In this document: positions 27,194 to 63,314 of the stretch, one piece after another
How positions within the stretch are numbered: position 1 is the stretch's first letter
How the letters are laid out: the number at the start of each line of letters is the position of its first letter
Source: a virus
DNA: 64,000 nucleotides
Virus record (IMG/VR): IMGVR_UViG_3300019888_000004
Coordinates: 3,023-67,022 of that record
Strand: one strand, 5' to 3'
Made by a program: the position numbers and the translations under genes
The notes under the pieces: generated by a model
The model's input: only the letters and a program-made list of their open reading frames with translations
What the model was told of the DNA's origin: nothing
The model's database searches: none

Positions 27194-27379
27194 TTATCCG
27201 TGCGTTCTCACAAACTCATCAGCATCCGCCTGCTCGCGGAACGTGGCGAGCCATTCGATGCCGCCGTCCCAGCTTGGATTTCCGTTTGGCCAGGCGATTT
27301 CAAAGTTGCCGGTGTCTGGGTTGTGCCAGATCACGCATCTGGGGTAGCGCGGCTTGGCTATCGGGATTTCGTCAGTCAT
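27194..27379 (-). CDS. hypothetical protein
   Basis: packed in the operon. Confidence 0.45.
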   Translation of the reverse strand: MTDEIPIAKPRYPRCVIWHNPDTGNFEIAWPNGNPSWDGGIEWLATFREQADADEFVRTHG

Positions 27380-27975
27380 TTGGACTCTTTTGCGATGGTC
27401 AGCCGAGCGGCTTCTCTAGCAGCGTGGAGATGCGGCCAATTTTTCCCGGTTCTAATGCTGCGGATCGCGCTTTCAAAGACACCGTATTTTTTGGCCAGTT
27501 CTTTGGGCGTCGTTGAGCAATTTATTATTTCCAAAGCTTGAGCCTCTGTGAATTTGTGGTTTGGTCTTCCCTCTCCGGGATTCGACCTTCCTTTTGCCAC
27601 CATGTCTTGTGAGTTGTCCTTGGCGGTTCCAACAAAAAGATGGTCAGGGTTTACACATGGACGATTGTCGCAGCGGTGGCAAACAAACAAACCGGCTGGG
27701 ATTTGACCGACAAAAAGCTCGTAGGAAACTCTGTGGGCTGGCCTGGTTTTTGTGCCCCGCACTCCAATCGTTCCGTATCCGCGCGTTGTTCCGCCGGTCC
27801 AAATCCAGCACGTTGAAGTTTTGTCAACCTTAACCTTCGCCAGAAATCGTCCCAGGATTGGCTGTGTTCGGGTTTTGAAATAACAGATTCTTGAGCAGTA
27901 CTTTCTTGCTTCAAACCTGGATCGTTCCGGCTTGAATGGCCGTCCGCAAACTTCACAAAGTTTTTCCGCCATCAT
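27376..27975 (-). CDS. HNH homing endonuclease
   Basis: CWIWTG...AHRVSY...VCHRCDNRPCVNPDHL; C-terminal HTH. Confidence 0.9.
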   Translation of the reverse strand: MMAEKLCEVCGRPFKPERSRFEARKYCSRICYFKTRTQPILGRFLAKVKVDKTSTCWIWTGGTTRGYGTIGVRGTKTRPAHRVSYELFVGQIPAGLFVCHRCDNRPCVNPDHLFVGTAKDNSQDMVAKGRSNPGEGRPNHKFTEAQALEIINCSTTPKELAKKYGVFESAIRSIRTGKNWPHLHAAREAARLTIAKESK

Positions 27976-28119
27976 TGCTGCACCTTTTGAGGTGTCCCGG
28001 CCCGCGTGTGCAGCGTTCGCTGGAAGGCGAGGCAAGCCCACTGAAGGACTTCGCGAGCCGAGACAGATTTGATTTACGCTGCACACAGGAACGATGCCAG
28101 TTTTATCCGCATCCGTCAA
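27976..28119 (-). ncRNA. promoter plus A-B-A'-B'-A leader, copy 2
   Basis: TTGACG-N17-CATCGT; GTGTGCAGCGT/ACGCTGCACAC; GTCTCGGCTCGC/GCGGGCCGGGAC; GTGCAGC repeated before ATG. Confidence 0.65.
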
Positions 28120-31630: not shown

Positions 31631-32244
31631 GAAAATAATTCAGCTTTTTCTTTTCTGCTTCCACCAAACCGGAAAGGTGGTGTTAGGAGCCTTTCCACGC
31701 CAGCGTAATTGCAGAAGGTTTTGAATTGATCGCGACTGATTCCGAGGCTTGTAATATCTTCAAACGAAAGAGATTTTCTTCCAGCGCACATATCTAAAAA
31801 CGCCTTGAAGACAGCGGATTCAAAGACGCGCATCTTGCCATGACATCTCAAGCAGAGAGGCACAGTCTCGTCCTTTGAATAATCTTCATGGTGGCCGTGC
31901 AGTGACTTCGAGCGACGACCACAAGCTGAACACACATCCGTTCGCGGCTTCTTGGCTATCAACTGCTGTGCTCTTTGGTGGGAAAAGCCAAACTCGTCTC
32001 CGATTTCAGAATAGCTCTTGCCCTGAATTTTAAGGAGGCGAATGAGTGCTATCCTTTTTATTGTTTGTGGCCGATGGCCTTTCGGAGCGCCGGGCTTAAA
32101 ACACGGAAATCCAAGCCGCTTCCTAACCTTAGAAATCTCGTGATGGTTGGTTCCTAAAGCCGCAATGATAGCCACTGGAGGCTTTCCAACTTTGAGTAAT
32201 TCTTCGATTTTGAGAATCGTTGGTGATATTGAGTTGTCAGGCAT
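31621..32244 (-). CDS. HTH plus HNH-like protein
   Basis: GKSYSEIGDEFGFSHQRAQQ; CSACG...HGHHEDYSK...LCLRCH. Confidence 0.7.
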   Translation of the reverse strand: MPDNSISPTILKIEELLKVGKPPVAIIAALGTNHHEISKVRKRLGFPCFKPGAPKGHRPQTIKRIALIRLLKIQGKSYSEIGDEFGFSHQRAQQLIAKKPRTDVCSACGRRSKSLHGHHEDYSKDETVPLCLRCHGKMRVFESAVFKAFLDMCAGRKSLSFEDITSLGISRDQFKTFCNYAGVERLLTPPFRFGGSRKEKAELFSCG

Positions 32245-32367
32245 AAACGGATCATCGTTTGTGTTTAGTGGTGGGTGTCCGGCCATCAACCGGCGCCCGC
32301 TACGACTTTCGAGATTCCTCCGCGTTGTCGCAAGAAAAATCTGCGGATTTCGTTTCCGTCAAGGTTT

Positions 32368-32607
32368 TCATGCCCATAGCGACTCATAAAATTTGGCGCG
32401 TTCTTGTTCGAGCCTGGCGAGCGCCTCAGTCTCATTCCTGCCAATTCCGATGATCTCACCCCCGTCAACTTCAGCGCCGAAGATCGTATGAATTCGCTCC
32501 TTGGCGACAAAGTATCTGCCTGTGCGAGAATTCGGATTGATAACTTCTTCAACGGTTGGTTGGCTGGTCGTCAGTCCGGGTGATTTGGATTCGTGAATTT
32601 GAATCAT
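32368..32607 (-). CDS. hypothetical protein
   Basis: ORF in operon. Confidence 0.45.
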   Translation of the reverse strand: MIQIHESKSPGLTTSQPTVEEVINPNSRTGRYFVAKERIHTIFGAEVDGGEIIGIGRNETEALARLEQERAKFYESLWA

Positions 32608-33035
32608 CTCTGGATTTTTTGTTGCACGATCCCGTCCTCAGTCCGATAGTTCCTTGCCCGCGCAATGCGGGTTGTTGGTTTCAACAGGTTATCCGGCGGC
32701 GGAGTCGTCGCCGGTTTTTGTTGCAACACCAAGGGCAGCCAATAAACCAAAGAAGTCAGCATTTCGATCTCGTAGTTTATAGTCCGATTCCTCGCTCGGT
32801 TAAGCCTCTGCCGCTCGCGCTGACCCGCTCGCTTTCTTCGACTCATACAATAGCCCGCGTCGTGGATGTCGTGGGCTGGGTCGGTTGATACGCCGAACCA
32901 GCGTCTTTGCGCCAGAGGTGGTCGGTTGATTGGATTTCATTTCACCTTTTTGAGCGCATTGCGCCTGACTCCACAGAGCGCCATTCAGCTTGCCCAAGTT
33001 CCGGTTTTGGTTCTTATATCGCATGTCGGCTTGCA

Positions 33036-33215
33036 TCATGTGGCCTTCGTTATTGAAAGCCGCTTGCCGTTTGGGTGGGTTTTCTTCCAGTCCATCAATT
33101 CGGCTATGGTTGTCGCAGGCGTGCAAACGTGCGTTTCGACCCACATGTCGCCCACGGTTTCGTTGCCGTCGCTGCATTCGAGCACGGCCACGTAATCGGA
33201 TTCGTCGGATTCCAT
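33036..33215 (-). CDS. hypothetical protein, probably leaderless
   Basis: TTGCCC-N17-TTTAAT immediately before ATG. Confidence 0.5.
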   Translation of the reverse strand: MESDESDYVAVLECSDGNETVGDMWVETHVCTPATTIAELMDWKKTHPNGKRLSITKAT

Positions 33216-33221
33216 TTCGCA

Positions 33222-33290
33222 ATTAAACCACGGGCGGATTGGCGGGGCAAGAAAAAAGTTGTTGACATTATTCGGCAACACGGCATGATG
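33222..33290. promoter_or_regulatory. divergent back-to-back promoters
   Basis: minus strand TTGCCC-N17-TTTAAT; plus strand TTGACA at 33262 then CATGAT; gene orientation switches here. Confidence 0.55.
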
Positions 33291-33297
33291 CTTGGAA

Positions 33298-33504
33298 ATG
33301 CCAACATCAACCAAGCCAAAAAAACTCAGCACGCTTGCCATCGCCGCGAAGCTCAAGGCCGAGAAAACCTTCTGGGTCGGCACGGATCGAGAACGCAGGG
33401 ACGTGCTCGCAGTCGCGCGCTACCTCGACCTCGGCGTGAAGATTACAACCCGGGCCTGTGTTGGCTCCGAGGGCTTCAACGTCTATTTCATCAATTCAAA
33501 ATGA
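33298..33504 (+). CDS. small DNA-binding-like protein
   Basis: leaderless after the TTGACA promoter. Confidence 0.45.
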   Translation: MPTSTKPKKLSTLAIAAKLKAEKTFWVGTDRERRDVLAVARYLDLGVKITTRACVGSEGFNVYFINSK

Positions 33505-33866
33505 ACACCCAACTCCTCCGCCGCATCCAGCGGCAGATTCTCAAAGAGCCGGAGCAGTTCCAGATGCGGACCTGGTTCACCAGCTGGTCCTACTCAACAA
33601 TCCCAAACTGCGGCACGGCGGCCTGCATTGGCGGCTGGGCTGTAAGTCTGAAACATGGACGAACTCCAAGAGATGAGCGCATGGCAATTCCCAAAGGTGG
33701 CGTATTTGAGGCCGCGCGCAGAGCCGTCGGGCTTACCACAAAACAAGCGCACCTGCTGTTCATTCCCATCAACTGGCCAGCGCGGTTTAAGCGATTCCAC
33801 CACGACAACCCAAAACAAGCCGTGGCGAGAATTTCACATTTCATCAAAACGAAAGGCGAAGATTGA
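33501..33866 (+). CDS. hypothetical phage protein (CGTAACIGGWA family)
   Basis: FQMRTW...CGTAACIGGWA motif. Confidence 0.65.
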   Translation: MNTQLLRRIQRQILKEPEQFQMRTWFTSWSYSTIPNCGTAACIGGWAVSLKHGRTPRDERMAIPKGGVFEAARRAVGLTTKQAHLLFIPINWPARFKRFHHDNPKQAVARISHFIKTKGED

Positions 33867-34258
33867 GCGATCCAATTCAAATCAGCGACGCTGCGCGCGA
33901 AGCGGCTCTCGACATGGACGGCGGGGTGAGTTGGAGGGCCGAAAGAATTCAGAAGGCAATAGATGCCGCGACCTCCGAGTTACAGAAGGAAATCAATCGC
34001 AATAAGCGTTCTGTAAACTGGGCCGACGATACACGCATCGCACTGTCAAAAGAACTCGGCTGCGCGGCGATGGCCTCTGAAGTTGTCCTGCAAGTCAAAA
34101 AACTGCGCGTCGAGAACAACAGGTTGCGCGAAGCCTTGAAATGTCTGGCGCTATCACACACGCCGGAATGGTGGCTGAGTGGAGCGCCAGAACAGATCGC
34201 CGAGAATGCCCTCGCGCAAAAACCGGAGGAAAAACCATGCGAAACGAAACCAGCTTAG
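33863..34258 (+). CDS. hypothetical coiled-coil protein
   Basis: ENNRLREALK pattern. Confidence 0.5.
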   Translation: MSDPIQISDAAREAALDMDGGVSWRAERIQKAIDAATSELQKEINRNKRSVNWADDTRIALSKELGCAAMASEVVLQVKKLRVENNRLREALKCLALSHTPEWWLSGAPEQIAENALAQKPEEKPCETKPA

Positions 34259-34539
34259 GCGGATCACCGGCGGCGACGCCACAACCCAAACCATCGCGCA
34301 AGCGCCGGCCCGCGCTGCCGTTCCCGAAACGCGCCGAAGAACCGGAGGCAGCATGATAGTCATAGACGGAATCGAAATGGACGATGGCGTGGACGAGCCG
34401 GACGCAGGACACGAGGACAGCGATGATGATGCCTGCGCTACGTGCGGCGGTGACGGAGTGAACGCGCAAACCCAAATTCTAACCCCGCGCGGTTACGACG
34501 AAACTCACGCCGAGTGCCTTGAGCGAGTTGAGAAATGAC

Positions 34540-34686
34540 TTGCACCGCAAAACGAATCAGGCCATCATCCGAACGGCCTTAGAACGGCTGAAAAAGCAGA
34601 TGCAAAACGATACTCTCCAGCGCCCTTCACGGTTGCCGCAAATCTGCGCGGGTTCTACTTCACGGTCGGGTGCTGGTTTTGCGTTT
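34540..34686 (+). ncRNA. promoter plus A-B-A'-B' leader, copy 4 (weaker)
   Basis: TTGCAC-N17-CATCAT; GCAGAT/ATCTGC; CCAGCGCCC/GGGTGCTGG. Confidence 0.45.
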
Positions 34687-35313
34687 ATGGGGAAACTTCA
34701 AGACCTAACAGGGAAAACCTTTTCACGATTGTTTGTTGTCGGACTCGCCGGCAGAAACAACAGCGGAACGCACCTATGGGAATGTTTGTGTCAATGCGGG
34801 GCTACAACCTCCGCCACACGAGGCAACCTCAAAAACGGGCACACCAAATCTTGCGGTTGTTTAAGGATGGATGTCTCGTTTCAAATCAACCTTAAGCATG
34901 GGCACGCACACAAAGGAGAGAGAACACCAACCTATCGAAGTTGGGACGCAATGAAAGACAGGTGTTTGCGCCAAGAATGCGAAGCTTTCAAGCATTACGG
35001 CGGGCGCGGGATAAAAATTTGCGAGCGGTGGCTTCATTCGTTTGAAAACTTTCTGGCCGACATGGGGGAGTGTCCTCCCGGACTTACGATAGACCGCAAG
35101 AACAACGACGGCAATTACGAGCCTGATAATTGCCGATGGGCCGACAGAAAAACCCAAGCCAATAATAATCGCCGCAATCGAATCATGGAATTCAACGGAG
35201 AGCGATTAACAGCTTCACAGTGGGCGGACAAACTTGGGATTAGATCACGCACAATCCTTGAGAGAATTAACAATGGCTGGGGCATTGAAAAAACGCTCAC
35301 AACACCAATATAA
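34687..35313 (+). CDS. HNH homing endonuclease
   Basis: DLTGKTFSRL...KSCGC...YGGRGI...IDRKNNDGNYEPDNCRWA. Confidence 0.9.
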   Translation: MGKLQDLTGKTFSRLFVVGLAGRNNSGTHLWECLCQCGATTSATRGNLKNGHTKSCGCLRMDVSFQINLKHGHAHKGERTPTYRSWDAMKDRCLRQECEAFKHYGGRGIKICERWLHSFENFLADMGECPPGLTIDRKNNDGNYEPDNCRWADRKTQANNNRRNRIMEFNGERLTASQWADKLGIRSRTILERINNGWGIEKTLTTPI

Positions 35314-35546
35314 AAACGACATTGCGCTTCCTGATACCCATGTTAATTGACGAGACTTTTGATGAATGCCTGAATCGCCAGACGAGAGAGAGCCGCTTCG
35401 CACTCAAGCCGAAACCCGTCCAGCACGATTGGCATGTTCGCATGTGGGCGGTTGAAATGTTTGAACTCATCGAAACGCTCGCGTGGCAGAGGCGACAAGC
35501 CCGCGCAAACTTTGAATAATGGAAAACCAAAAACCCAAGGAAACTC

Positions 35547-36155
35547 ATGCCTACCTTTGAGAGATGCGATAAATCCGTTGAATCTCTGGCCCGCGAGTTA
35601 ATCGGAAAATACGACACCAACAAGCCGTTGGACCAGATTGGTGTGAAGATTGACTACGTGTTCGCCTACGCGGATTTAGACGATAAGGACCGACCGATCA
35701 ACGATGCACTGACAAATAACGGAATCAAGGCGCTGGGCATCACGCGCAAGATTCCGCTCAAAGACCGCGCTCTTGGACGAGGCGATGCCGAAATTGCGCT
35801 GGACGGCGACTGGTGGAAGGTGGCCACAGACGACCAACAGGCGGCGCTGCTCGACCACGAACTTCACCACATCGAAATCAAATCGGACAAGCACGGCAAC
35901 GTCCAGTATGACGACCTTAACAGGCCGCAGTTGAGGCTGAGGAAGCACGATCAGGAATTTGGGTGGTTCAACTGCATCGCTGAACGCCACGGCGCCGCGA
36001 GCCAGGAACGGATTCAAGCCAAGTCAATCATGGATTTCTCCGGTCAATTCTACTGGCCCGGCATCGCGCCAACGATTGAGTTGTCCAGTGGTGGAAAAAG
36101 CACAGGACTAATCCCTCTCGGCGCATTCGCAAAGGCCGCAGCCAAGAAAATTTGA
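35547..36155 (+). CDS. putative phage metallopeptidase
   Basis: ALLDHELHH (HExxH), LRKHD.EFG. Confidence 0.75.
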   Translation: MPTFERCDKSVESLARELIGKYDTNKPLDQIGVKIDYVFAYADLDDKDRPINDALTNNGIKALGITRKIPLKDRALGRGDAEIALDGDWWKVATDDQQAALLDHELHHIEIKSDKHGNVQYDDLNRPQLRLRKHDQEFGWFNCIAERHGAASQERIQAKSIMDFSGQFYWPGIAPTIELSSGGKSTGLIPLGAFAKAAAKKI

Positions 36156-36519
36156 ACGCTATGACCGACGAACAATTCTCCCAACTCAAAGCGGACGAGG
36201 AAGCCGCTTACGCTGCGTATGACGAGCAGTTAAACGCAACCAATCCGCTGGGGGCACAATGGCTGCTGCTTAAACAGAAACTCGACCGCGAGAACATGCG
36301 CCGGGAAATTCTGGCCGAGGAAGCGGCGGCGCTGAAATCCATCCCTGACCACGAACTCGCATGAAGCGCGACCTCCGCAGCCCTCTCGCCAAGGCCCGCG
36401 ACGAATGGCTGGCGAGCGAGGAAGGGAGACCAGTCGCCGTCCCATACCTCCAAAACCGGCTCACGATGGCCTTTCTTTGCCGGGGCGCAGTGGGCGACGA
36501 AACAACTCAAAGAAAATGT

Positions 36520-36547
36520 TTGACGAACCTAAACGCTTAGGTATTCT
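36520..36547 (+). promoter_or_regulatory. promoter with palindromic operator
   Basis: TTGACG-N16-TATTCT; ACCTAA-ACGC-TTAGGT in the spacer. Confidence 0.65.
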
Positions 36548-36550
36548 CGG

Positions 36551-36688
36551 ATGAATGCTAAAAACAAACACGCAGTTGCTCTTGGTAGGATTGGCGGCAA
36601 AGCTAAGACGAGGGCCAAAACCAAAGCGGTCAGAGCCAACGGTCGTCTGGGTGGACGGCCAAGAGTGTATCGGCGTACCGCTGACTAA
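36551..36688 (+). CDS. 45-aa basic GxxGG peptide (MNAKNKHAVALGRIGG...ANGRLGGRPR)
   Basis: translated by hand; overlaps the HNH N-terminus in another frame. Confidence 0.65.
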   Translation: MNAKNKHAVALGRIGGKAKTRAKTKAVRANGRLGGRPRVYRRTAD

Positions 36689-37175
36689 AGGTATGGTTGC
36701 GATAGTTGATAAAGAGGACGCGCCTCGCGTGCTGGAATACTTCTGGGTTGCCAAGAAGCACGGCTCTGAGCCAAACGTGATTTGGTATGCCGAACGGCGC
36801 ATCAGGACTGATGAGCCAAATTTTGGAAAGCGTCAGCTTGTAAAGCTTCACCAGTTCATACTTCCAGGCCAACGGGAAATAGATCATCACAACAGTGATG
36901 GGCTTGATTGCCGAAAATGCAATCTTCGGCCTGCGAGCCATTCTCAAAATGCAGGCAACACTCGTATCGCATCAAGTTCTAAAACAGGATTCAAAGGAGT
37001 CAGTTTCAGGCCCGCAAAAGGAAATCGAAGAAGCCGATGGATTGCCCGCATAAACGGAAATGGAATCCGAAAACAGTTGGGATCATTTCAGAGTCCGGTT
37101 GAGGCCGCCAAAGCATATAATGTCGCCGCGCTGGAAAGGTGGGGAGAATTTGCCCGGTTAAACACAATCCCATAA
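36555..37175 (+). CDS. HNH-AP2 homing endonuclease
   Basis: PLTKGMVAIVD...IDHHNSDGLDCRKCNLR...GFKGV...WIARI...EAAKAYN...GEFARLN. Confidence 0.9.
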   Translation: MLKTNTQLLLVGLAAKLRRGPKPKRSEPTVVWVDGQECIGVPLTKGMVAIVDKEDAPRVLEYFWVAKKHGSEPNVIWYAERRIRTDEPNFGKRQLVKLHQFILPGQREIDHHNSDGLDCRKCNLRPASHSQNAGNTRIASSSKTGFKGVSFRPAKGNRRSRWIARINGNGIRKQLGSFQSPVEAAKAYNVAALERWGEFARLNTIP

Positions 37176-37200
37176 ACAACAAAACAAAAGGTAAAATCCG

Positions 37201-37623
37201 ATGCACATTTCACAATTGAAACAGTCCAAATTTTTAACTCGTGCCGACGTGGGGAAAGGGGTGCTTGCAACTATCAGAACAATTCATCAACAGGACGTAA
37301 GTAAGGAAGGCGCGCCCGAGGAACTTCGCTGGTGCATCACCTTTGATGAATACGAAAAGCCGATGGTGCTCAACTCGACCAACGGCCAACTGATAGCCCA
37401 AATCACCAAGAGCGAGGACACGGATGCGTGGGCCGGCCAAAAGATTGTGCTCTACGATGATCCAAGTGTGTCCTTTGGGGGCAAGTTGGTCGGAGGAATC
37501 CGGGTCCGGGCTCCGCGCAATCAACCCGCCAAGCCAGCACCGGCGCCGGCATCGGCTCCGGCAAGGCCAGCGCCAGTGCAGCAACCGGAGGCTGGAGATC
37601 CGGATGGCGAGATCCCTTTTTGA
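37201..37623 (+). CDS. putative ssDNA-binding protein
   Basis: SKFL...LNSTN...W.G.KI.LY...GGIRVR; acidic EIPF tail. Confidence 0.65.
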   Translation: MHISQLKQSKFLTRADVGKGVLATIRTIHQQDVSKEGAPEELRWCITFDEYEKPMVLNSTNGQLIAQITKSEDTDAWAGQKIVLYDDPSVSFGGKLVGGIRVRAPRNQPAKPAPAPASAPARPAPVQQPEAGDPDGEIPF

Positions 37624-37793
37624 GTGAAACTAAGGAAGCGCGGCTTTGTGTCGGGTGCGGCCAGTTCAGAAAATTGCTCTGGTCAAACAAGCACAAGGAG
37701 TTCACATGCTTCCAATGTTTCCTCAAGCCAAAGTTGTTTTGAAGCCAATCGTCCTTAACACAATTCTGGGGCGGGCTGCCACGAGAAACGATG

Positions 37794-37940
37794 TTGACGG
37801 AATCCGGACTGTGAATATGATTCTGGCGTGCAACAGAACGTCAAATCTTCCTGCCGCTTCGGAACGGCTTACGCCTACACTCCGCTTTTTGCGGGACTGT
37901 TGCACACCGGGGCGGCGGGAACTTCAAAATGGTGCAACAG
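37794..37940 (+). ncRNA. promoter plus A-B-A'-B'-A leader, copy 5
   Basis: TTGACG-N16-TATGAT; GTGCAACAG (37828) / CTGTTGCAC (37897) / GTGCAACAG (37932); TTCCTGCCGCTTCGG/CCGGGGCGGCGGGAA. Confidence 0.7.
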
Positions 37941-38461
37941 TGAAAAAAATAGGAAGCAATCGGATTGGGATTATTTGTCCGCATTGTCATAAGAGCATAA
38001 CCCACTTCGTTTCCACCCACGGGAAATACAACACCCCGGAGTACCGAAGCTGGTTCGGGATGAAGTCCAGATGCCTTAACCCGAGAAATTACGGGTTCCG
38101 AAATTACGGCGGCAGAGGGATAACGGTCTGTAAAAAATGGATGGAGTTTGAGGGATTCATCGAGGACATGGGGTTAAAACCTTCTCCTGAATACAGCCTC
38201 GAAAGAATTGACAACAACGGCAATTATGAGGCTTCCAATTGTCGTTGGAGCAACAGGCAGGACCAAAACAACAACAGGAGAACAACCAGATTATTGTCCC
38301 ATGAAGGACAAACAAAAACACTGAGTCAATGGGCTGAACATATTGGAATTCACCAGTCTGGTTTGAGCAGAAGGTTGAATCAATTGGGATGGCCGTTGGC
38401 GCAGGCTCTTACAACTCCACCAAATTACGGAAACAGGCACCGCAATGGCAAAACCCATTGA
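37940..38461 (+). CDS. HNH homing endonuclease
   Basis: THG...EYRSW..MKSRC...YGGRGI...LERIDNNGNYEASNCRW. Confidence 0.9.
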   Translation: MKKIGSNRIGIICPHCHKSITHFVSTHGKYNTPEYRSWFGMKSRCLNPRNYGFRNYGGRGITVCKKWMEFEGFIEDMGLKPSPEYSLERIDNNGNYEASNCRWSNRQDQNNNRRTTRLLSHEGQTKTLSQWAEHIGIHQSGLSRRLNQLGWPLAQALTTPPNYGNRHRNGKTH

Positions 38462-38816
38462 ATTACATGCGGTGCTTGGTCGCGCGGCCACCAAATCCGA
38501 CGGCACCCTTTCGCTTATTTTCAGCACCGGCGAATTCAGTGCTGAAGAAATGGCCGTCTTGTTCAAGCTCCTTCGGATAAATCTTCTTCTCAGGCTGACT
38601 CCGCTCGGAGAATCACTTGAGCCGCCCGTGGAGGTAAAGACCGATATTCAGACCAAAACTCCATCTGCGCGGCTTCGCGGTGTGCTGTTTGTGCTCTACA
38701 AGCAGTTGGACGGGCAAGAATTAGTTAAGGGCAAATCCTTTGAATTATTTTACTCAGAACAAATGAACCGGGTTATTGACGATTTCAAAGCGCAACTGGA
38801 ACCAGAACAAGCATGA
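38445..38816 (+). CDS. conserved phage protein (recombination-module associated)
   Basis: KTPSARLRGVLFVLYKQ motif. Confidence 0.55.
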   Translation: MAKPIELHAVLGRAATKSDGTLSLIFSTGEFSAEEMAVLFKLLRINLLLRLTPLGESLEPPVEVKTDIQTKTPSARLRGVLFVLYKQLDGQELVKGKSFELFYSEQMNRVIDDFKAQLEPEQA

Positions 38817-38822
38817 TTTGAA

Positions 38823-38851
38823 TTGACACACGCAAGCCGCTTGCGCATAAT
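38823..38851 (+). promoter_or_regulatory. promoter with palindromic operator
   Basis: TTGACA-N17-CATAAT; CGCAAGC-C-GCTTGCG in the spacer. Confidence 0.75.
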
Positions 38852-38853
38852 CC

Positions 38854-39066
38854 ATGAATGATTCAGTCAAAACGTATCTCTCAAAAATTGGCCGTCGCGG
38901 CGGCAAGGCTGGCGTTGGAGCATCCAAAGCACGCCCACCTGTTCTCGCCCGAAAGGCGGCTAACACCCGATGGAAAAACAAAGTGTTGCATCGTGACGTG
39001 CGACAGGCCCGTAACCGGAAAAGGGCTGTGCGTGGGTCATTACGCAAGGTGGAAGTACAAATGTGA
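38854..39066 (+). CDS. basic GxxGG peptide (YLSKIGRRGGKAG...ARKAANTRW)
   Basis: KGG-like motif; overlaps the HNH gene in another frame. Confidence 0.6.
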   Translation: MNDSVKTYLSKIGRRGGKAGVGASKARPPVLARKAANTRWKNKVLHRDVRQARNRKRAVRGSLRKVEVQM

Positions 39067-39382
39067 ATTGAATCCAGACATTCCACTCGACAAAGCGCAA
39101 AACCATAAAGGCGCACTTAATGGGAATTGGAAGGGTGGAGAAATAAGCGATGGGCACGGCAGAATCTTAATTTATGCGCCTAAACATCCAAATCCTTCGT
39201 ACTGTGGAACGCACGTTTACCGCTATCGGCTCGTCATGGAGAAGTATCTTGGGAGGTTTCTGCTGCCGAGTGAAATTGTTCATCACAAAAATGAAGACCA
39301 GTCAGACGACAGAATCGAAAATTTAGAAGTGATGACTCAGGCGAAACACTGCAAGCTGCATCTACATCCAACGCAAAGGTAA
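38858..39382 (+). CDS. HNH homing endonuclease
   Basis: NGNWKGG...PKHP...RLVMEKYLGRFL...VHHKNEDQSDDRIENL. Confidence 0.85.
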   Translation: MIQSKRISQKLAVAAARLALEHPKHAHLFSPERRLTPDGKTKCCIVTCDRPVTGKGLCVGHYARWKYKCELNPDIPLDKAQNHKGALNGNWKGGEISDGHGRILIYAPKHPNPSYCGTHVYRYRLVMEKYLGRFLLPSEIVHHKNEDQSDDRIENLEVMTQAKHCKLHLHPTQR

Positions 39383-39386
39383 AAGA

Positions 39387-40106
39387 ATGAGCCATGTGAT
39401 TTTCTTCGATTTAGAAAGTGCCGCATTCGACGCGGAACAGCTTCAACCGTTCATGCCCGAGTTTCTCCCGGCTGGGAATTTGAAAGACCCGGACAAGATC
39501 GCGGCTAGCATAGCCGAGAAGCGCGAGGCGTGGCTGTCCCGGTGCGCGTTGTCGGCCACAACGGGCCGCATCATCGCAGCCAGCATCGCGAGAAACAGCG
39601 ATGTGCCCGAGTTCATCTACGCCCCGGATGAACGCACCATTATTGACGTGCTGCTCCACGATCTGTCCGAAACTATTGCTTTGGGCGGGACTGCGTTCGG
39701 TTGGAACAGCCACGGATTCGACCTGCCGTTTCTGGCACAGCGTGCAGCGTCTCACGGCATCCCAGCCTTCACACTGCTCACGACCAGCTTTCGCGGCAGG
39801 CGTTCCTGGAACGAGGTGTTTGCGGATGTGATGCAGGTCTGGTGCGGGCCTTACAACCGTAGTGACGGCATGAGCCTGAAAAATGTGGCCTTGGCGCTGG
39901 GAGTTGGCACCAAGGCCGGTAGCGGGTCGGACTTTTCCGAATTACTCAAGAGTGATCCCGTCAAAGCCAAGGAGTATTCTCTGAATGATGTGGTGTTGTT
40001 GAGAAACATCGCGGTAAAAATGGGACTGGCTGATCTCACACCCCCGCCTCGCCCGAAGCTCACGCCGCTCAAAGAGCCGGAAGAACCGACGGACGTGGGG
40101 CATTGA
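39387..40106 (+). CDS. DEDD 3'-5' exonuclease (PolB/DnaQ-like)
   Basis: FFDLES, GWNSHGFDLPFL, YSLNDV. Confidence 0.8.
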   Translation: MSHVIFFDLESAAFDAEQLQPFMPEFLPAGNLKDPDKIAASIAEKREAWLSRCALSATTGRIIAASIARNSDVPEFIYAPDERTIIDVLLHDLSETIALGGTAFGWNSHGFDLPFLAQRAASHGIPAFTLLTTSFRGRRSWNEVFADVMQVWCGPYNRSDGMSLKNVALALGVGTKAGSGSDFSELLKSDPVKAKEYSLNDVVLLRNIAVKMGLADLTPPPRPKLTPLKEPEEPTDVGH

Positions 40107-40304
40107 ACACATGACCAAATTCCCTGCCATGACACCGCCAACCAGCCCTTCGGAAGTCGGAGGGCGGGGCACGGATAAAAAGAAGAAGTGCCGCGTCGTG
40201 GCAGGTTTCCGAATCAAGCCTCCGAAAATCGAAGGAGACCGATGGATTGTGCAATCCCGCAGCCGCTCGGGACGATGGGAAACGCGAATTACTACGCACT
40301 GCCG

Positions 40305-40556
40305 ATGAAAAATAAACGTCGAATTTCTCGCAAAGCCGGATGCCGAAAGCGAACCTGCGGTTTGCTGCATCCGGCGGCTGGTTCGGCGGAAACGTCGAGC
40401 GACACAAAACTGTGGCGGCGATACCGGCTCACTCATGTCACGGTCGCGTGGCAGGAACGATACGGTGAACATTGGTATGACTACTCGAAGAAAATCACGC
40501 ATGAGGACTTCCTGAAGCACTACTCACAAGTGCCGCCCGCCGAACGACAAAGCTGA
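40305..40556 (+). CDS. cassette ORF, hypothetical
   Basis: starts inside an attC-like loop and ends in the next site. Confidence 0.45.
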   Translation: MKNKRRISRKAGCRKRTCGLLHPAAGSAETSSDTKLWRRYRLTHVTVAWQERYGEHWYDYSKKITHEDFLKHYSQVPPAERQS

Positions 40557-40574
40557 GCGGCGCAACGAAGACCC

Positions 40575-40772
40575 ATGAACAAACCTGAAAGCGTAAATGC
40601 GTCCGCTCCAGCGGCGGACGACCGATGCCGCGAACTCGAAAAGCGCATAGCCGAGCTAACGAAACTGTGCCATCGCGCCGGAGATGCAATGGACGCCGCA
40701 CTGACCTGCCCCAACGATGCGGGATACCGCGCCGATGCCGCCGATGCCGTGGAAGAACTTCAAGCGGTGTAG
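40575..40772 (+). CDS. cassette ORF, hypothetical coiled coil
   Basis: starts inside an attC-like loop. Confidence 0.45.
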   Translation: MNKPESVNASAPAADDRCRELEKRIAELTKLCHRAGDAMDAALTCPNDAGYRADAADAVEELQAV

Positions 40773-40799
40773 GACCCCTAACGACCAAGCTCACCGACC

Positions 40800-41165
40800 A
40801 TGCGAATAAAAACCAAAACCGTAATGGACCAAATGAACGCCGAGAAGCCAGACGGCGTGCTCGCAGACCTGGAGGCTAAGCATGGTTCGGTGCAGCGGCT
40901 GGTTAGCCCGCTTCCGTGCCCGTTCTGTGGCTCGACGAAAATCACAGTCGAATGGGAGGAATGCGAGCCACTCGACTCGACAGACACAAACCGTCGCTGG
41001 TTCGCGGAATGCGCTCAATGCTGTTGCCAAGGTCCATTTTGCCAGAAAGAACCGCAGGTCATACCGGCGTGGAATAAGCGGGCTAACAGGGGATTAACCG
41101 TCGCAAACGACGGGATATTGGATGGGCCAAGCACGAATCACCCACCAAACACGTCGAAGGTTTAG
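40800..41165 (+). CDS. Lar-like restriction-alleviation Zn-ribbon protein (cassette)
   Basis: PLPCPFCGS...EC..C...GP...AWNKRA. Confidence 0.7.
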   Translation: MRIKTKTVMDQMNAEKPDGVLADLEAKHGSVQRLVSPLPCPFCGSTKITVEWEECEPLDSTDTNRRWFAECAQCCCQGPFCQKEPQVIPAWNKRANRGLTVANDGILDGPSTNHPPNTSKV

Positions 41166-41183
41166 ACCGGCACTTGCGGTTCG

Positions 41184-41372
41184 TCAGGAAATCCCGAGAC
41201 GATCACGCGCAGCTTGTTTCTCGGCTGCGGGGGTCGCAGCGTCCACTTGCGCGAGAAAGTCGCTCAAATCTTGCGGTGTCGGCTTCCAGCCTTCCGGCTT
41301 GTTCGCGTGCTCTGCCCAAATTTGGATAAGAGTGTTGATGCCAGTTCCGACGAGAGTAAGAATGCTGTCCAT
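41184..41372 (-). CDS. small lysis-cassette-like protein
   Basis: amphipathic N-terminus, follows the lipoprotein. Confidence 0.4.
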   Translation of the reverse strand: MDSILTLVGTGINTLIQIWAEHANKPEGWKPTPQDLSDFLAQVDAATPAAEKQAARDRLGIS

Positions 41373-41373
41373 G

Positions 41374-41733
41374 TCAGTTTGGTTTGAGGGTTAGAGTCAG
41401 CTTGTCCGCGCCTGCCTTCACCTCAGCGGGCGGTGCGGCACTCCAGTTCTGGCCCGCAGCGACCAAAGCTGTTCGAAAGGTACTGCGGAAGGCGTTCCAC
41501 GCCAAATCCGCTTGAGCCTCCTGATCCTTCGTGACTTTGCCTTGCACGACGCGCTCACAGAACGCGCCATAGGCGGCATGGGCGACATTCCAGGTGTCTT
41601 TGAGAGAATGGTAGGCGATTGCCTCTTTTGTGTCCGTCGTCGAGCAGCCGACAAGCCCGACGGTTGACAACGCGACCGGCAAGGCGGTGGCACAGAGCAG
41701 GACGGACAGGACGACAGATCGGAATCGTTTCAT
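41374..41733 (-). CDS. lipoprotein (spanin-like)
   Basis: signal peptide and LVGC lipobox. Confidence 0.6.
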   Translation of the reverse strand: MKRFRSVVLSVLLCATALPVALSTVGLVGCSTTDTKEAIAYHSLKDTWNVAHAAYGAFCERVVQGKVTKDQEAQADLAWNAFRSTFRTALVAAGQNWSAAPPAEVKAGADKLTLTLKPN

Positions 41734-43323
41734 GGCTTCAATTTGCCACCGGCGGGCTGGATTGGCAACCCTGGGGTTTTCACGATCCAACATCGCGCCT
41801 CGCACCACGCTTCCCATGCGAGTTGCACGGCGATGTCTTTGTATTGGTCGGGCCACGCGTGCGTGGTTTCGTCTTGCGGCCAGCGTTCTGTTTCGCGCTC
41901 ATACGGCGGGCCTGCAACCCATTGTTCAAATGACGACCGCGCAGAACCTTGGTCGATCTCGGACAGAGCTTGGTCGTATGTTGGCAGCCCACATGTTGCT
42001 TCGCCGTTCATCTGTTTCCTTTTCGTCGCGCCAACTGATAGTTTCTTTGCTCGTCCCGCTCGTCCGCTGGACGCGGCAACGGGTTGGGAAGTTTTGTTCG
42101 GCGACGGCGGGCAAGCGCGTCATACGCGCGAAGTTCCGCTTTTGTCATTCGCCTATTCACACCTGTCCCGATGTTGTAAATAGTCACGCCTTCGTCTCCA
42201 TTAACGCATCATGCACCGCCATATGCCGCAGAATGTGCCGCGCCTGTTCCTGCCACGGCTCATTCGATCCGACGAGCACCGGCAGCGAGTATTTCACGCG
42301 GACGAGGTAGCAGACATACGGCCACTCAGTATCTAATACCGCGCAGTCCGCCTTGTATTTCCACCAAAACAAGTCTGGAGACGATTGAAGAACGCGAATC
42401 TGGTCAGGCAAGAGCCACGCCAGTTCGGCCTGCAACTCGTCGTCTGAAATGTCGGTCAACATCAATCCTTAAGCGCCACAGCGCCGACTTTACGAAAGCC
42501 GGAAATTATTCAGTAGCAGTTTGCCATTCTTTCCGCTCGCGTTGGGTGCTGCAAGTCTTCGATCTCCTTCTCAAGTTCTTTGATCTCCTCCTCAAGCTCT
42601 TTGATCCTCGCCAACGCTGCGGTCAGCAACGAAGCTGTTTGAATATAGTCCACTTCCCAGGTCAAGAGTTTTTCAGGCGACTGAATCGCTATAGGAGCTT
42701 CTTTAATCTCTCTTTCCAGATTCGTCATTCTGCCGCCTTGCTCTCTGGTAACTGTCGCACGGGAACAGCGTCTCCCACGGGGATGTTTCCGGCGGCCAGG
42801 ATTCCATCACTGATCGCCCCAATCAGCGCCTTGTTGTGCCCGTCGGAGTTTGGGCTGTACGCGTCCTCGTAATACGCAAACAGGTCCATAAAGGCCAGGC
42901 GCGCCTGCAATGTCCATTTGTCGTTCTCGGAGGCGCGTGTGAGCTTGGCTTTGAGTTCAGATGGGAACAACACGTTACCACGAACCGCTTCAATCAGGTT
43001 GTTGCGGCAGGACGAACTCAGGTGCAGGCCCGCGCGCGGATATTGTCGGAACGTCTGCACAAGCCTGCTCTCGACCACCAACTTCAAAGTCTCGGGTGTC
43101 ATTGAGTGGAGTCTGGGATTGTTGCTTTTGCCACATCGTCAACGTGGAGACATTCCTTGAGATTCGGCATCACGTCTGATGGAGACGTTGGCGCAATCCT
43201 TCCGTTGCATGTGTCGTTGCCGGCGACAGCGTCGTAAAGAATCCCAGCCACCGGCGCGCCGTAGGAAGGAATCAAAACAACCTTATCTCCGTTCTTCGCT
43301 TCTCTGCCGTTTTTGTAGTGCAT
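41730..43323 (-). other. run of small hypothetical genes (41730-42011, 42184-42465, 42510-42728, 42725-43102, 43099-43323)
   Basis: coupled ORFs; the 43099 gene begins MHYKNGREAKNGD. Confidence 0.5.
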
Positions 43324-43438
43324 GGCGACAATATGCTTTGCTTTCGGGCAACCGTCGAGGCACAATTCGCGGGTGAGCGCCCGTTGATGCGGAACGCCCA
43401 CCCGCTAATCACAACGTTAGAAATCGAAGACGAACGTT

Positions 43439-44182
43439 ATGCCTGACACACCTGATAATCCAATCGGAACCTACCGTCCACACGCAAATGCGAGGACAAT
43501 CCCACCCGGAACGAAATTCGCGAGACTGACCGTTCGCGAGCCTGGGCCAATCGTAAAACAACGAAGCACCAGCATTTGCGATTGTGTATGCGGTAACGTC
43601 GCCACCGCCTTGAACAAGAGATTGCTGAACGGAATGACATCATCCTGCGGGTGCTTGAAGAACGAGGGCAACAATTTCAAACACGGGCACGCCCTTGCTG
43701 GAAATCCAAGCCGAATGTACCAGCAATGGCAAAATATGGTTAAGAGATGCTGCAATCCAAACGCCACGCAGTTTGAGTGCTGGGGCGGGCGTGGAATTCG
43801 AGTGTGCGAACGCTGGAGAAATTCCTTCCCGGCGTTTCTCGAAGACATGGGCGAGTGTCCGCCTGGGCTTGAGATTGACCGCTGGCCGGACAAGAATGGG
43901 AATTATTCCTGCGGGAAGTGCGACGAGTGTTTGCGTAACGGCTGGAAGTTCAACTGCCGGTGGGCCACCAAAAAAGAACAAGCCAGAAACAAGCGCGACA
44001 ACTTGGTGTTCACCGTGCGTGGCACCACAGCCTGTTTGGCAGAATTATGCGAACGCTTTGGTTTGGACTACGTCAGAACGCACTGCCGATTGACGGCAGG
44101 GTGGGATATTGAAAGAGCGTTATTTCAACCCGTGGCGAATCGGGGTCAGCTTAAAGCATCGGAGTCGAGAGAAGCGAAGTAG
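43439..44182 (+). CDS. HNH homing endonuclease inserted opposite to the surrounding operon
   Basis: FARLTV...SCGC...WGGRGI...EIDRWPDKNGNY...NCRWAT; own TTGCTT-N17-CACAAT promoter. Confidence 0.88.
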   Translation: MPDTPDNPIGTYRPHANARTIPPGTKFARLTVREPGPIVKQRSTSICDCVCGNVATALNKRLLNGMTSSCGCLKNEGNNFKHGHALAGNPSRMYQQWQNMVKRCCNPNATQFECWGGRGIRVCERWRNSFPAFLEDMGECPPGLEIDRWPDKNGNYSCGKCDECLRNGWKFNCRWATKKEQARNKRDNLVFTVRGTTACLAELCERFGLDYVRTHCRLTAGWDIERALFQPVANRGQLKASESREAK

Positions 44183-62522: not shown

Positions 62523-62663
62523 GACGCAAAACCTCTTTGAGTCTTTGCTATTGGCGTGACTCGGATGCAGGAAACTGAAACCTCAAAGCCGCTGTTTGGC
62601 GTAGCTTCCATACTACTGCCTTCGAGTCACATTGTTGGCAACCAGACGGCGGCTTTGAGGTTT
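62521..62663 (+). ncRNA. promoter plus A-B-A'-B' leader, copy 6
   Basis: TTGACG at 62521; GTGACTCGGA/TTCGAGTCAC; AAACCTCAAAGCCGCTGTTTGG/CCAGACGGCGGCTTTGAGGTTT. Confidence 0.65.
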
Positions 62664-62675
62664 GAGGAAGCACTG

Positions 62676-63314
62676 ATGACAACTCCCGTTCAGTTAGAAC
62701 TCACCGCGCCGAAGTTTCCTGGGAGACAATGTAAACGGCCCGGGTGCGGGCAGATGTTCTACACCAGAAAGAAGTCGCAGCAATTCTGTTCGCCAGCGTG
62801 CCGCTATCTGTCGCTGCGAATCCCGATTGAGCAAAGATTCTGGCCGCAGTTGAAGATCGCAGACAACGGATGCTGGGAATGGACGGATCGCGCAATAGAC
62901 AAAGACGGTTACGGGCAGCTTCAATGGAACGGTGAACAAAGAGCGCATCGAGTAGCGTGGATAATCACCTTCGGTCCAATCCCAGACGGCAAATGGGTGC
63001 TTCATAGTTGCGACAATCGAAAATGCTGCAATCCGTTCCACCTTTTCCTCGGTGATGCCGCGGCCAATAACGCAGACATGCTCTCCAAAGGCAGGCAGAA
63101 ATACTTGTGCGGCGAGGAACGGCGCGAGGCGAAGCTGACGACTGAACAGGTCTTGGAAATCCGTCGTCTTCACGCCGAAGGAATGCAGCAACGGAAGATC
63201 GCGAAACTTTTCTGCGTCGGCTTCAAGGCAATTAACAAGATCGTTTTGCGCCAGCGATGGAAGCACATTCCCGAAGCCCAATCCAACAAACTCCCCGCCC
63301 CCGCAATCGCATGA
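62676..63314 (+). CDS. HNH homing endonuclease
   Basis: CWEWT...AHRVAW...VLHSCDNRKCCNPFHL; C-terminal HTH; paralog of 27376..27975. Confidence 0.9.
   Translation: MTTPVQLELTAPKFPGRQCKRPGCGQMFYTRKKSQQFCSPACRYLSLRIPIEQRFWPQLKIADNGCWEWTDRAIDKDGYGQLQWNGEQRAHRVAWIITFGPIPDGKWVLHSCDNRKCCNPFHLFLGDAAANNADMLSKGRQKYLCGEERREAKLTTEQVLEIRRLHAEGMQQRKIAKLFCVGFKAINKIVLRQRWKHIPEAQSNKLPAPAIA

Follow-up and report, generated by a model that had tools for sequence, protein, structure and literature searches.

The stretch of DNA analyzed in this work, referred to below as the window, comprises 64,000 nucleotides (nt), bases 3023-67022 of a 67,022-base viral contig (IMG/VR record IMGVR_UViG_3300019888_000004) that belongs to a soil phage and is estimated to be 93% complete. 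At two sites on the plus strand of the window, a predicted sigma70-type promoter with a dyad in its spacer is followed by the heptamer ATGAATG, which holds two out-of-frame start codons. The first ATG (ATG1) opens a gene for a small basic protein, and the second (ATG2), in the +1 frame, opens an open reading frame (ORF) for a homing-type endonuclease. The original prediction had described the promoter, the spacer palindrome, the heptamer and the two open frames, and had placed the -10 box 2-3 nt before ATG1; inspection of the sequence and a check of the ORFs agree with this description at both sites.

The promoter of copy 1 (36520-36547) consists of the -35 box TTGACG (36520-36525), a 16-nt spacer and the -10 box TATTCT (36542-36547). 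Within the spacer lies the dyad CCTAA-acgc-TTAGG (36528-36541), whose arms of 5 base pairs (bp) are perfect, an arm length that is reached by a fraction of 0.017 of spacer shuffles. The trinucleotide cgg separates the -10 box from the heptamer (36551-36557). ATG1 opens a 45-residue peptide ORF (36551-36688, plus strand), which aligns with the members of the family described below and ends in the NGRLGGRPR class of C-terminus; ATG2 opens a 206-residue nuclease ORF (36555-37175, plus strand) with an HNH_3 domain and an AP2-like tail. The family-conserved part of this nuclease begins at about position 36663 (ECIGVPLT...), and its residues 1-36 are overprinted on the peptide gene. In copy 2, the promoter (38823-38851, plus strand) combines the -35 box TTGACA (38823-38828), a 17-nt spacer and the -10 box CATAAT (38846-38851), and the spacer dyad CGCAAGC-c-GCTTGCG (38831-38845) has perfect 7-bp arms, matched in length by 0.002 of shuffles. 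Here the dinucleotide cc precedes the heptamer (38854-38860). The copy 2 peptide ORF (38854-39066, plus strand) encodes 70 residues, of which the family-like part is encoded by 38854-38985 (IGRRGGKAG...ARKAANTRW), and its tail overlaps the Cys-rich segment of the nuclease; the nuclease ORF (38858-39382, plus strand) encodes 174 residues, with the Cys-rich segment at the N-terminus and HNH_3 behind it. The peptide and nuclease ORFs overlap by 130-210 nt in the window copies, and across the cassettes the starts of the two ORFs lie within -11 to +7 nt of each other.

A promoter scan of the window lists both sites, with 9 of 12 consensus positions matched in copy 1 and 11 of 12 in copy 2. The heptamer by itself occurs in the window at the level expected by chance (9 matches versus 8.42 expected); the composite pattern TTGAC-N(21-29)-ATGAATG has two matches versus 0.17 expected, a number reached in 2 of 100 shuffles. 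The genes upstream of the cassettes are co-directional with them and end at 36540 (copy 1) and 38816 (copy 2), and a site scan of the window detected no terminator-like site between the upstream gene end and the cassette in either copy. The gene-like ORF ahead of copy 1 (36361-36540, 59 codons) has its TAG stop (36538-36540) inside the promoter spacer, so that the left edge of the cassette overlaps the end of a possible host-phage gene. An Rfam search of the region 34000-41500 returned no match at E ≤ 1 to an intron or any other RNA family, so that no group I intron surrounds the nuclease genes.

As the viral contig was assembled from a metagenome, an assembly or sequencing indel might have broken a single gene into two frames. 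Over 36400-39226, no difference is seen in a Logan contig of run X1, which may be the source sample; contigs from a second sample, which cover 36400-36599 (X3) and 38887-39054 (X4), also show 0 differences, this independent cover excluding 36600-36685. No gaps are present where these contigs cover the locus, and the check for frame-fusing indels that had been suggested with the original prediction therefore gave none in the re-assembled contigs, including the parts from the second sample. More telling than the contig cover is the identical out-of-frame layout on contigs of other samples, which makes an assembly artefact unlikely to the point that we consider it extremely improbable.

The copy 2 nuclease matches the Pfam family HNH_3 (PF13392) with 37.1 bits, above the curated cut-off of 24.8. 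The copy 1 nuclease scores below the cut-offs for both HNH_3 (22.4 bits) and AP2 (21 bits); it matches PHROG 99, annotated as 'HNH endonuclease', at 1e-32, and its relatives are 30-40% identical. The earlier statement that each copy carries a different HNH family holds for the architecture, which is an AP2 tail in one copy and an N-terminal Cys-rich segment in the other, and fails for the nuclease domain, as both proteins match HNH_3. The closest nuclease relatives listed (proteins P0002-P0006) are all called in the nuclease frame. An AlphaFold model of the copy 2 nuclease, computed from a 6-row alignment, has a predicted local distance difference test score (pLDDT) of 48.4 and is uninformative for the overprinted N-terminus.

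The peptides of the two copies can be aligned with one another as well as with short ORFs from other DNA. When 1.84 billion proteins were searched with a profile built from eight such sequences, 1130 cluster representatives (clusters at 50% identity) matched at E ≤ 1e-3, of which 17 reached E ≤ 1e-10; a profile search of the window's own genome retrieved the copy 1 and copy 2 peptides with E of 1.1e-18 and 1.1e-24, respectively. The family is seen with the profile search only: single peptides gave nothing in a word-index search, and tblastn against cultured phages gave a best E of 0.1 or no match. Most of the family is small (142 of the best 150 profile matches have at most 110 residues), and two C-terminal variants are found, KAR-T-x-E-Q-AR-x-AA-x-ARW as in copy 2 and NG(K/R)LGGRP(K/R) as in copy 1. 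No Pfam or NCBIfam model exists for it; the window peptides (E ≤ 0.1) and four stand-alone relatives (E ≤ 1) have no Pfam match, and the family searches matched no helix-turn-helix family to the peptide. The KGG stress-protein repeat (PF10685) gave no profile match, and a protein atlas placed viral hypothetical clusters first (0.89), followed by a weak KGG lead (0.83) to a cluster in which 21% carry that family. A structural model of the peptide from 21 sequences predicts two helices (residues 3-19 and 29-43; pLDDT 79.3), for which Foldseek found no match in the Protein Data Bank. In the literature searched (supplements aside), no published description of the peptide motif was found.

In 80 bacterial loci, mostly from Acidobacteriota and Burkholderiales according to the record titles, the family is represented by a stand-alone gene of about 38-41 codons, and it is also found in phages. 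The neighbors of 76 bacterial peptide genes, compared by eye, include no recurrent partner gene. Among 89 longer relatives, DUF2442 was found in 32, an N_methyl motif in 5 and HNH_3 in 2. The latter are P0238 (197 residues), with the basic module N-terminal to HNH_3 with an AP2-like tail, and P0287 (131 residues), with the module C-terminal to HNH_3. In viral loci, the module also forms the C-terminal tail of DUF2442 proteins (L121, 42 bits; L numbers denote loci on other contigs) and of UPF0150-like ORFs that score below the cut-off (2/10). Three viral loci, L119, L123 and L130, have tandem pairs of ORFs of about 120 residues with a UPF0150/HicB-like N-terminal part (below the Pfam cut-off), ending in the basic module; characterized antitoxins carry a DNA-binding domain at the corresponding place. 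The original prediction had presented the cassettes as two independent copies, which is wrong for their 5' part, where the peptides belong to one family. Since the two peptides align as family members, the shared heptamer (Met-Asn-Ala/Asp) probably reflects common ancestry of both copies.

The cassette recurs on other contigs. A class-1 motif scan yielded 80 viral loci (71 distinct), to which L023 was added, and nine class-1 loci (L023 included) have a nuclease in the +1 frame of the peptide; the class-2 scan adds L273. The same layout is present on viral or metagenome contigs at L018, L104/L107, L103, L023, L133/L137, L173, L190, L117, L120, L136 and L273. In the metagenome locus L018, the nuclease is 71% identical to that of copy 2, the start region reads TTGACA-18-TATATT-cc-ATGAATG with both frames open, and the dyad is that of copy 2 with one mismatch. 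An exact search for the dyad plus ATGAATG identified two more viral contigs, L104, with a classic HNH_3 body, and L103, where the contig ends 70 nt later and the nuclease is unseen. Locus L023 combines a copy-1-type peptide with a copy-2-type nuclease, and there the nuclease ATG comes first, with the peptide ATG 11 nt later. A search for palindrome, heptamer and HNH gene in other phages had been recommended from the sequence of the window alone; the cassettes found carry five nuclease types: HNH_3 plus AP2 (copy 1 and L190); Cys-rich segment plus HNH_3 (copy 2, L018, L023 and L133); HNH_3/zf-His_Me_endon (L107, at 24.1 bits versus a cut-off of 24.8, L155 and L173); PHROG 3377 (L175 and L273); and endonuclease VII of PHROG 1035 (L120 and L136, about 3e-6). 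The L117 nuclease has no family match and aligns with that of L136. The nuclease is always in the +1 frame of the peptide.

Two features hint at mobility of these units. The GC content is 0.45-0.49 in the nuclease bodies versus 0.58-0.60 in the flanking genes of the replication module, and the similarity between L018 and the window starts at the -35 box, the upstream genes being different. No empty site was found for the cassettes.

The second start codon is associated with the nuclease. Of the nuclease-linked class-1 loci, 7 of 9 have an ATG in the nuclease frame within -15 to +12 nt of the peptide ATG, with the frame open to the motif; the corresponding numbers are 0 of 50 for the other viral peptide loci whose ATG could be identified and 1 of 76 for bacterial loci (Fisher p ~1e-7, a nominal value that is overstated because the cassettes are related). 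Among class-2 loci with a peptide ATG, 2 of 13 have such an ATG, namely L273, with a nuclease, and L280. A predicted promoter scoring at least 8.5 precedes 11 of 12 cassettes, compared with 4 of 48 peptide genes used as controls and 56 of 3000 random stretches of 60 nt. Counted from the -10 box, the nuclease ATG is the 8th base in copy 1 and the 7th in copy 2, and it occupies the 6th to 8th base in 10 of 12 cassettes (10 of 13 with L273); promoters of the same score ending 6-8 nt before the reference point were found for 0 of 48 controls and 3 of 3000 random windows. The peptide ATG varies in position between the 2nd and the 19th base downstream of the -10 box; in six cassettes it lies 2-4 nt after this box. 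From primary-sigma promoters, transcription usually starts about 7 bases after the -10 hexamer. Given the retained position of the nuclease ATG and the wandering peptide ATG, the conserved feature, as judged by this comparison, is a nuclease start codon at the predicted 5' end of the transcript. No purine-rich or Shine-Dalgarno-like run precedes the ATGs of copy 2, and the sequence has the arrangement typical of leaderless genes, a -10 box 6-8 nt before the AUG with no Shine-Dalgarno sequence.

Selection on the two frames was compared in two pairs of cassettes, L117 with L136 and copy 2 with L018. In the first pair, the peptides are identical at 40 of 46 residues, and 155 of 240 aligned residues of the nuclease-only part differ. 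Within the overlap, the differences by peptide codon position 1, 2 and 3 are 9/47, 3/47 and 15/47, a normal coding pattern for the peptide and an abnormal one for the nuclease frame, in which the second position becomes the most variable. In the second pair, the third codon positions of the two frames differ within the overlap in 11 of 41 and 9 of 41 cases, versus 59 of 96 for nuclease third positions downstream. Over the second half of this overlap, the nuclease frame hardly changes (HPKHAHLFSPE-RLTPDG), and the same is true of P0002-P0006; the peptide departs there from the family consensus, with ARPPVLAR or ARSSILAR instead of AR-T-x-E-Q-AR. To judge from these patterns, the peptide frame is a selected coding sequence. 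We read this as the peptide being the older, selected gene, with the nuclease extension having gained some constraint of its own in the copy 2 lineage.

We propose, with a probability of roughly 0.55, that the local promoter gives a leaderless nuclease mRNA starting at ATG2 and that read-through transcripts carry ATG1. Each copy is a cassette for a free-standing homing-type endonuclease, with a predicted sigma70-type promoter of its own. Its head consists of this promoter and the gene for a conserved small basic two-helix protein of about 40 residues, on which the nuclease ORF is overprinted in the +1 frame, opening at an ATG on the expected transcription start. With the peptide ATG of the window copies placed only 3-4 bases past the -10 box, the local transcript would lack it, and the peptide would thus be readable only on transcripts from the upstream genes. 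Such transcripts, initiated in the co-directional genes, would carry ATG1 and could lead to production of the peptide, and the ribosomes translating it would cover ATG2. The anatomy of the cassette, its recurrence, the association of the second ATG with nuclease-linked loci and the conservation of the peptide frame as coding sequence are observed, and the start site, the leaderless translation and the assignment of two transcripts to two products are inferred. The leaderless nuclease mRNA of the original prediction is backed by the comparison of cassettes, through the predominant 6th-8th base position of the nuclease ATG. Its other half, the production of the peptide from read-through mRNA, would suit the six cassettes with a peptide ATG 2-4 nt after the -10 box; it does not suit L023, L190, L117, L136 and L133, in which the peptide ATG lies downstream of the nuclease ATG, or L120, L273 and L277, in which the peptide ATG itself is placed at the start-site position.

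Several observations weigh against this reading. The relatedness of the cassettes leaves the Fisher values nominal only, and the 'other' viral and the bacterial loci were classed by ORF length and by eye. The class-2 locus L280 has a nearby +1 ATG and no nuclease. In three of 13 cassettes the nuclease ATG comes later after the -10 box, at the 10th (L273), 11th (L133) or 13th (L120) base, and the 6th base is taken by the peptide ATG in L120 and L273. A promoter of the CCGCTT type described below is also located before L277 and L285 and is not specific to nucleases. The low divergence of the overlap could reflect a recent exchange of the 5' head rather than double constraint. Three further points bear on the start of the nuclease itself: L155 and L175 are nuclease-linked and have no nuclease-frame ATG at the 5' end; composition alone often leaves the +1 frame open in stand-alone peptide genes; and 9 of 9 distant relatives of the copy 1 nuclease with a match reaching query residues 1-5 start directly at M-x-IPLT, so that the fold does not need the 36-residue extension.

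These last three points would favor a more ordinary arrangement of overlapping neighbors, in which the peptide gene is a separate gene upstream, the nuclease starts internally near the end of the peptide ORF by coupling or re-initiation (in copy 1, at GTG 36651 or ATG 36703), and ATG2 and the open +1 frame ahead of that start are incidental. Such a start would agree with the relatives that begin M-x(1-3)-IPLT and with L104, in which the canonical FWKRVD N-terminus is immediately preceded by a GTG, some 10 nt short of the peptide stop. It has precedents in phage T4, where 5 of 12 free-standing endonuclease ORFs overlap the upstream ORF by 1-24 bp (PMC2988022). An ATG inside the NG codons (AATGG), present in 5 of 9 nuclease-linked loci, would also be in line with such an internal start, but AAT at the NG site is not enriched (5/9 versus 21/62), and incidental openness leaves unexplained the specificity of the 5' nuclease-frame ATG for nuclease-linked loci. 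The geometry of the -10 box, too, favors the nuclease ATG. The Cys-rich segment of copy 2 starts at 38984, which is 80 nt ahead of the peptide stop (39064-39066), and the only in-frame alternatives are TTG codons at 38888 and 38915, far outside the seven-codon scanning window described in the same review (PMC2988022). An internal start with coupling is therefore suited to copy 1 and L104 and not to copy 2, and the ATG association is unexplained by it; overall, we consider it unlikely.

Two other explanations were considered. One takes the peptide frame for the remnant of a small gene that was captured and is now decaying; the nuclease, read from ATG2, would then be the sole product, and the head would serve as promoter plus leader. 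This would agree with the six cassettes in which the peptide ATG, 2-4 nt after the -10 box, would be absent from the local transcript, with the lack of a Shine-Dalgarno-like run before ATG1 of copy 2, and with the departure of the copy 2/L018 peptides from consensus exactly where the nuclease frame is invariant (HPKHAHLFSP). A relic is nevertheless hard to reconcile with peptide ORFs that, in every cassette, are uninterrupted and retain the family's conserved residues although the nuclease bodies have diverged deeply, and with the codon pattern of L117/L136, in which the second position changes least and the third most; we regard it as quite unlikely. Alternatively, a programmed +1 frameshift or transcriptional slippage could add the peptide to the nuclease, where it would form an N-terminal arm that binds nucleic acid. 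In-frame fusions do occur naturally (P0238 and P0287), but HNH_3 occurs in only 2 of the 89 longer relatives, each a singleton cluster. Locus L023 has A7 and A6 runs at the junction, yet inspection of the junctions of copy 1, copy 2, L018, L104 and L023 revealed no shared motif, and no conserved shift site of the prfB type (a slippery codon plus an in-frame stop or rare codon). The nuclease frame is open from its own ATG, which a frameshift would not need, and with the -10 box geometry of the window copies the local transcript would lack the peptide ATG. A frameshifted fusion is, in our estimate, very unlikely. The proposal of a leaderless nuclease mRNA from the local promoter, with ATG1 carried by read-through transcripts, is the reading retained below.

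Perfect arms of at least 5 bp are present in 6 of 12 promoter spacers of the cassettes, and in the pooled set 0 of 2000 shuffles reach the observed arm sum; the arms differ among cassettes, with symmetry kept in those six, and CGCT occurs in 10 of 12 spacers. A function of the palindrome as a terminator or as a hairpin hiding the start was considered and set aside: in 5 of 5 sequences, the RNA fold of the palindrome region had no advantage over shuffles (z between -1.41 and +0.60), and none of the hairpins includes a start codon. The dyad/CCGCTT element might act as an operator bound by the peptide, might be recognized by some other factor of phage or host, or might mark a class of promoters.

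The same type of promoter is found with other genes. At L277 (1150-1350), a stand-alone peptide gene stands behind TTGCTC-17-TATCAT, with GCAAGCgGCTTGt in the spacer and its own ATG as the 7th base after the -10 box; this locus is a possible nuclease-free ancestor of the cassette head. At L285 (1189-1845), the basic module GGKAGTGKAKARSSEQARAAVNARW is fused N-terminally and in frame to a longer ORF that, judged by eye, resembles a ligase (EKCDG motif), behind a CCGCTT-type promoter whose -10 box again precedes the ATG by the distance that makes it the 7th base. As the same promoter heads both a stand-alone peptide and an in-frame fusion, the promoter-plus-peptide head looks like an older unit that was colonized by nucleases.

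A tentative extension, which we consider possible and rather doubtful as a whole, is that a portable head (a promoter with the CCGCTT/dyad element, two out-of-frame starts and the gene for the 40-residue protein) was captured by at least five unrelated homing-nuclease families, that the A residue at which transcription starts, or the upstream transcript, would select the product, and that the small protein would feed back. The predicted binding of the peptide to the dyad/CCGCTT element in the promoter spacer, by which it would set nuclease expression, is speculative and is doubtful to a similar degree. The occurrence of the module as the C-terminal tail of DUF2442 and, below the cut-off, UPF0150-like proteins offers by analogy only hints of a repressor role. 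The term 'toxin/controller unit' used in the original prediction is a loose label, as the products are homing-type endonucleases and the likeness to toxin-antitoxin systems is only an analogy.

The window encodes other nucleases of related kinds. A third homing-type nuclease (approximately 37943-38461; PHROG 3377 at 1.7e-51) is located between copies 1 and 2. Upstream of it lies a promoter-like sequence, TTGACG-16-TATGAT (37794-37821), and a GTG at the 7th base after this -10 box opens a 54-residue ORF (37828-37992) that does not resemble the peptide family; the third nuclease is again in the +1 frame of this ORF. Two further HNH_3 genes in the window, at 27376-28119 on the minus strand (52 bits) and 62556-63314 on the plus strand (47.6 bits), have no promoter/peptide head; the latter is preceded by a terminator-like hairpin and by TTGACG at about 62520. 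Within 32240-43447, a second 'HNH leader class' (GTTGATG hairpin, ATGCCTGAC) has been proposed and is a candidate only.

Small regulatory genes next to nucleases are familiar from restriction-modification operons with C proteins (PvuII, AhdI, Esp1396I), in which a small regulator gene lies just ahead of the endonuclease gene and overlaps it, and the operator boxes are palindromic; the C-dependent transcripts of PvuII are leaderless, and C proteins are helix-turn-helix proteins. The cassettes resemble these operons in having a small gene, an overlap and a palindrome-bearing promoter, but the C gene is upstream of the endonuclease gene and does not co-start with it. A parallel may also be drawn with homing endonucleases of T4. 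The intron endonucleases I-TevI and I-TevII, along with I-TevIII, have their own promoter inside a longer transcription unit, with an operator overlapping it, and only the local transcript is translatable for the nuclease (PMC2988022). An own promoter, an operator-like element over it and the distinction between local and read-through transcripts would be common to both systems. In T4, however, an RNA hairpin hides the ribosome-binding site, whereas here none was seen, the short palindrome hairpins folding no better than shuffles and the start codon lying at the predicted 5' end. Likewise, the T4 nuclease itself is the repressor and its operator resembles the homing site, whereas the element described here accompanies unrelated nucleases, and what the cassettes have in common is a small protein encoded by an overprinted ORF of its own.

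The free-standing T4 genes mobE, segC, segF, mobA and mobC also resemble the cassettes in that the nuclease start overlaps another ORF, an arrangement thought to limit translation of the nuclease (PMC2988022). Their overlaps are of 1-24 bp at the 3' end of a host gene, without an own promoter, in contrast to the dedicated promoter and near co-start described here. In ShiLan-type phages, an HNH endonuclease is encoded out of frame within a methylase gene, and leaderless initiation was proposed by the authors (PMC11855218). The likeness lies in the HNH homing endonuclease in an alternative frame of another coding sequence; the ShiLan-type nuclease, however, lies wholly in an insertion that is read through by the host methylase, and the part of that report consulted describes no promoter or partner peptide, the word 'promoter' having 0 occurrences in its text (PMC11855218). 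The literature searched, supplements aside, yielded no account of a peptide gene and a nuclease gene that overlap behind a promoter with two start codons. The cassette thus adds to the regulated free-standing homing endonuclease cassettes, by a layout that was not found described.

The cassettes have implications for genome annotation, as the small gene is systematically missed by gene callers that keep only the long nuclease ORF. They also point to a large, unnamed family of small basic proteins, the module of which is found as well as a tail of DUF2442, UPF0150-like, HNH and other proteins. Homing endonucleases need enough expression to spread and not so much that they harm the phage. The few studied cases, those of T4, use hairpins, coupling and autorepression, and the cassette suggests a different and very compact kind of control, a leaderless start overprinted on a small gene, which is portable across nuclease families and present on several uncultured phage contigs. 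If the tentative reading of a captured, portable head is true, it would constitute a two-product switch in about 40 bp. The cassette looks like a compact way to control a selfish gene.

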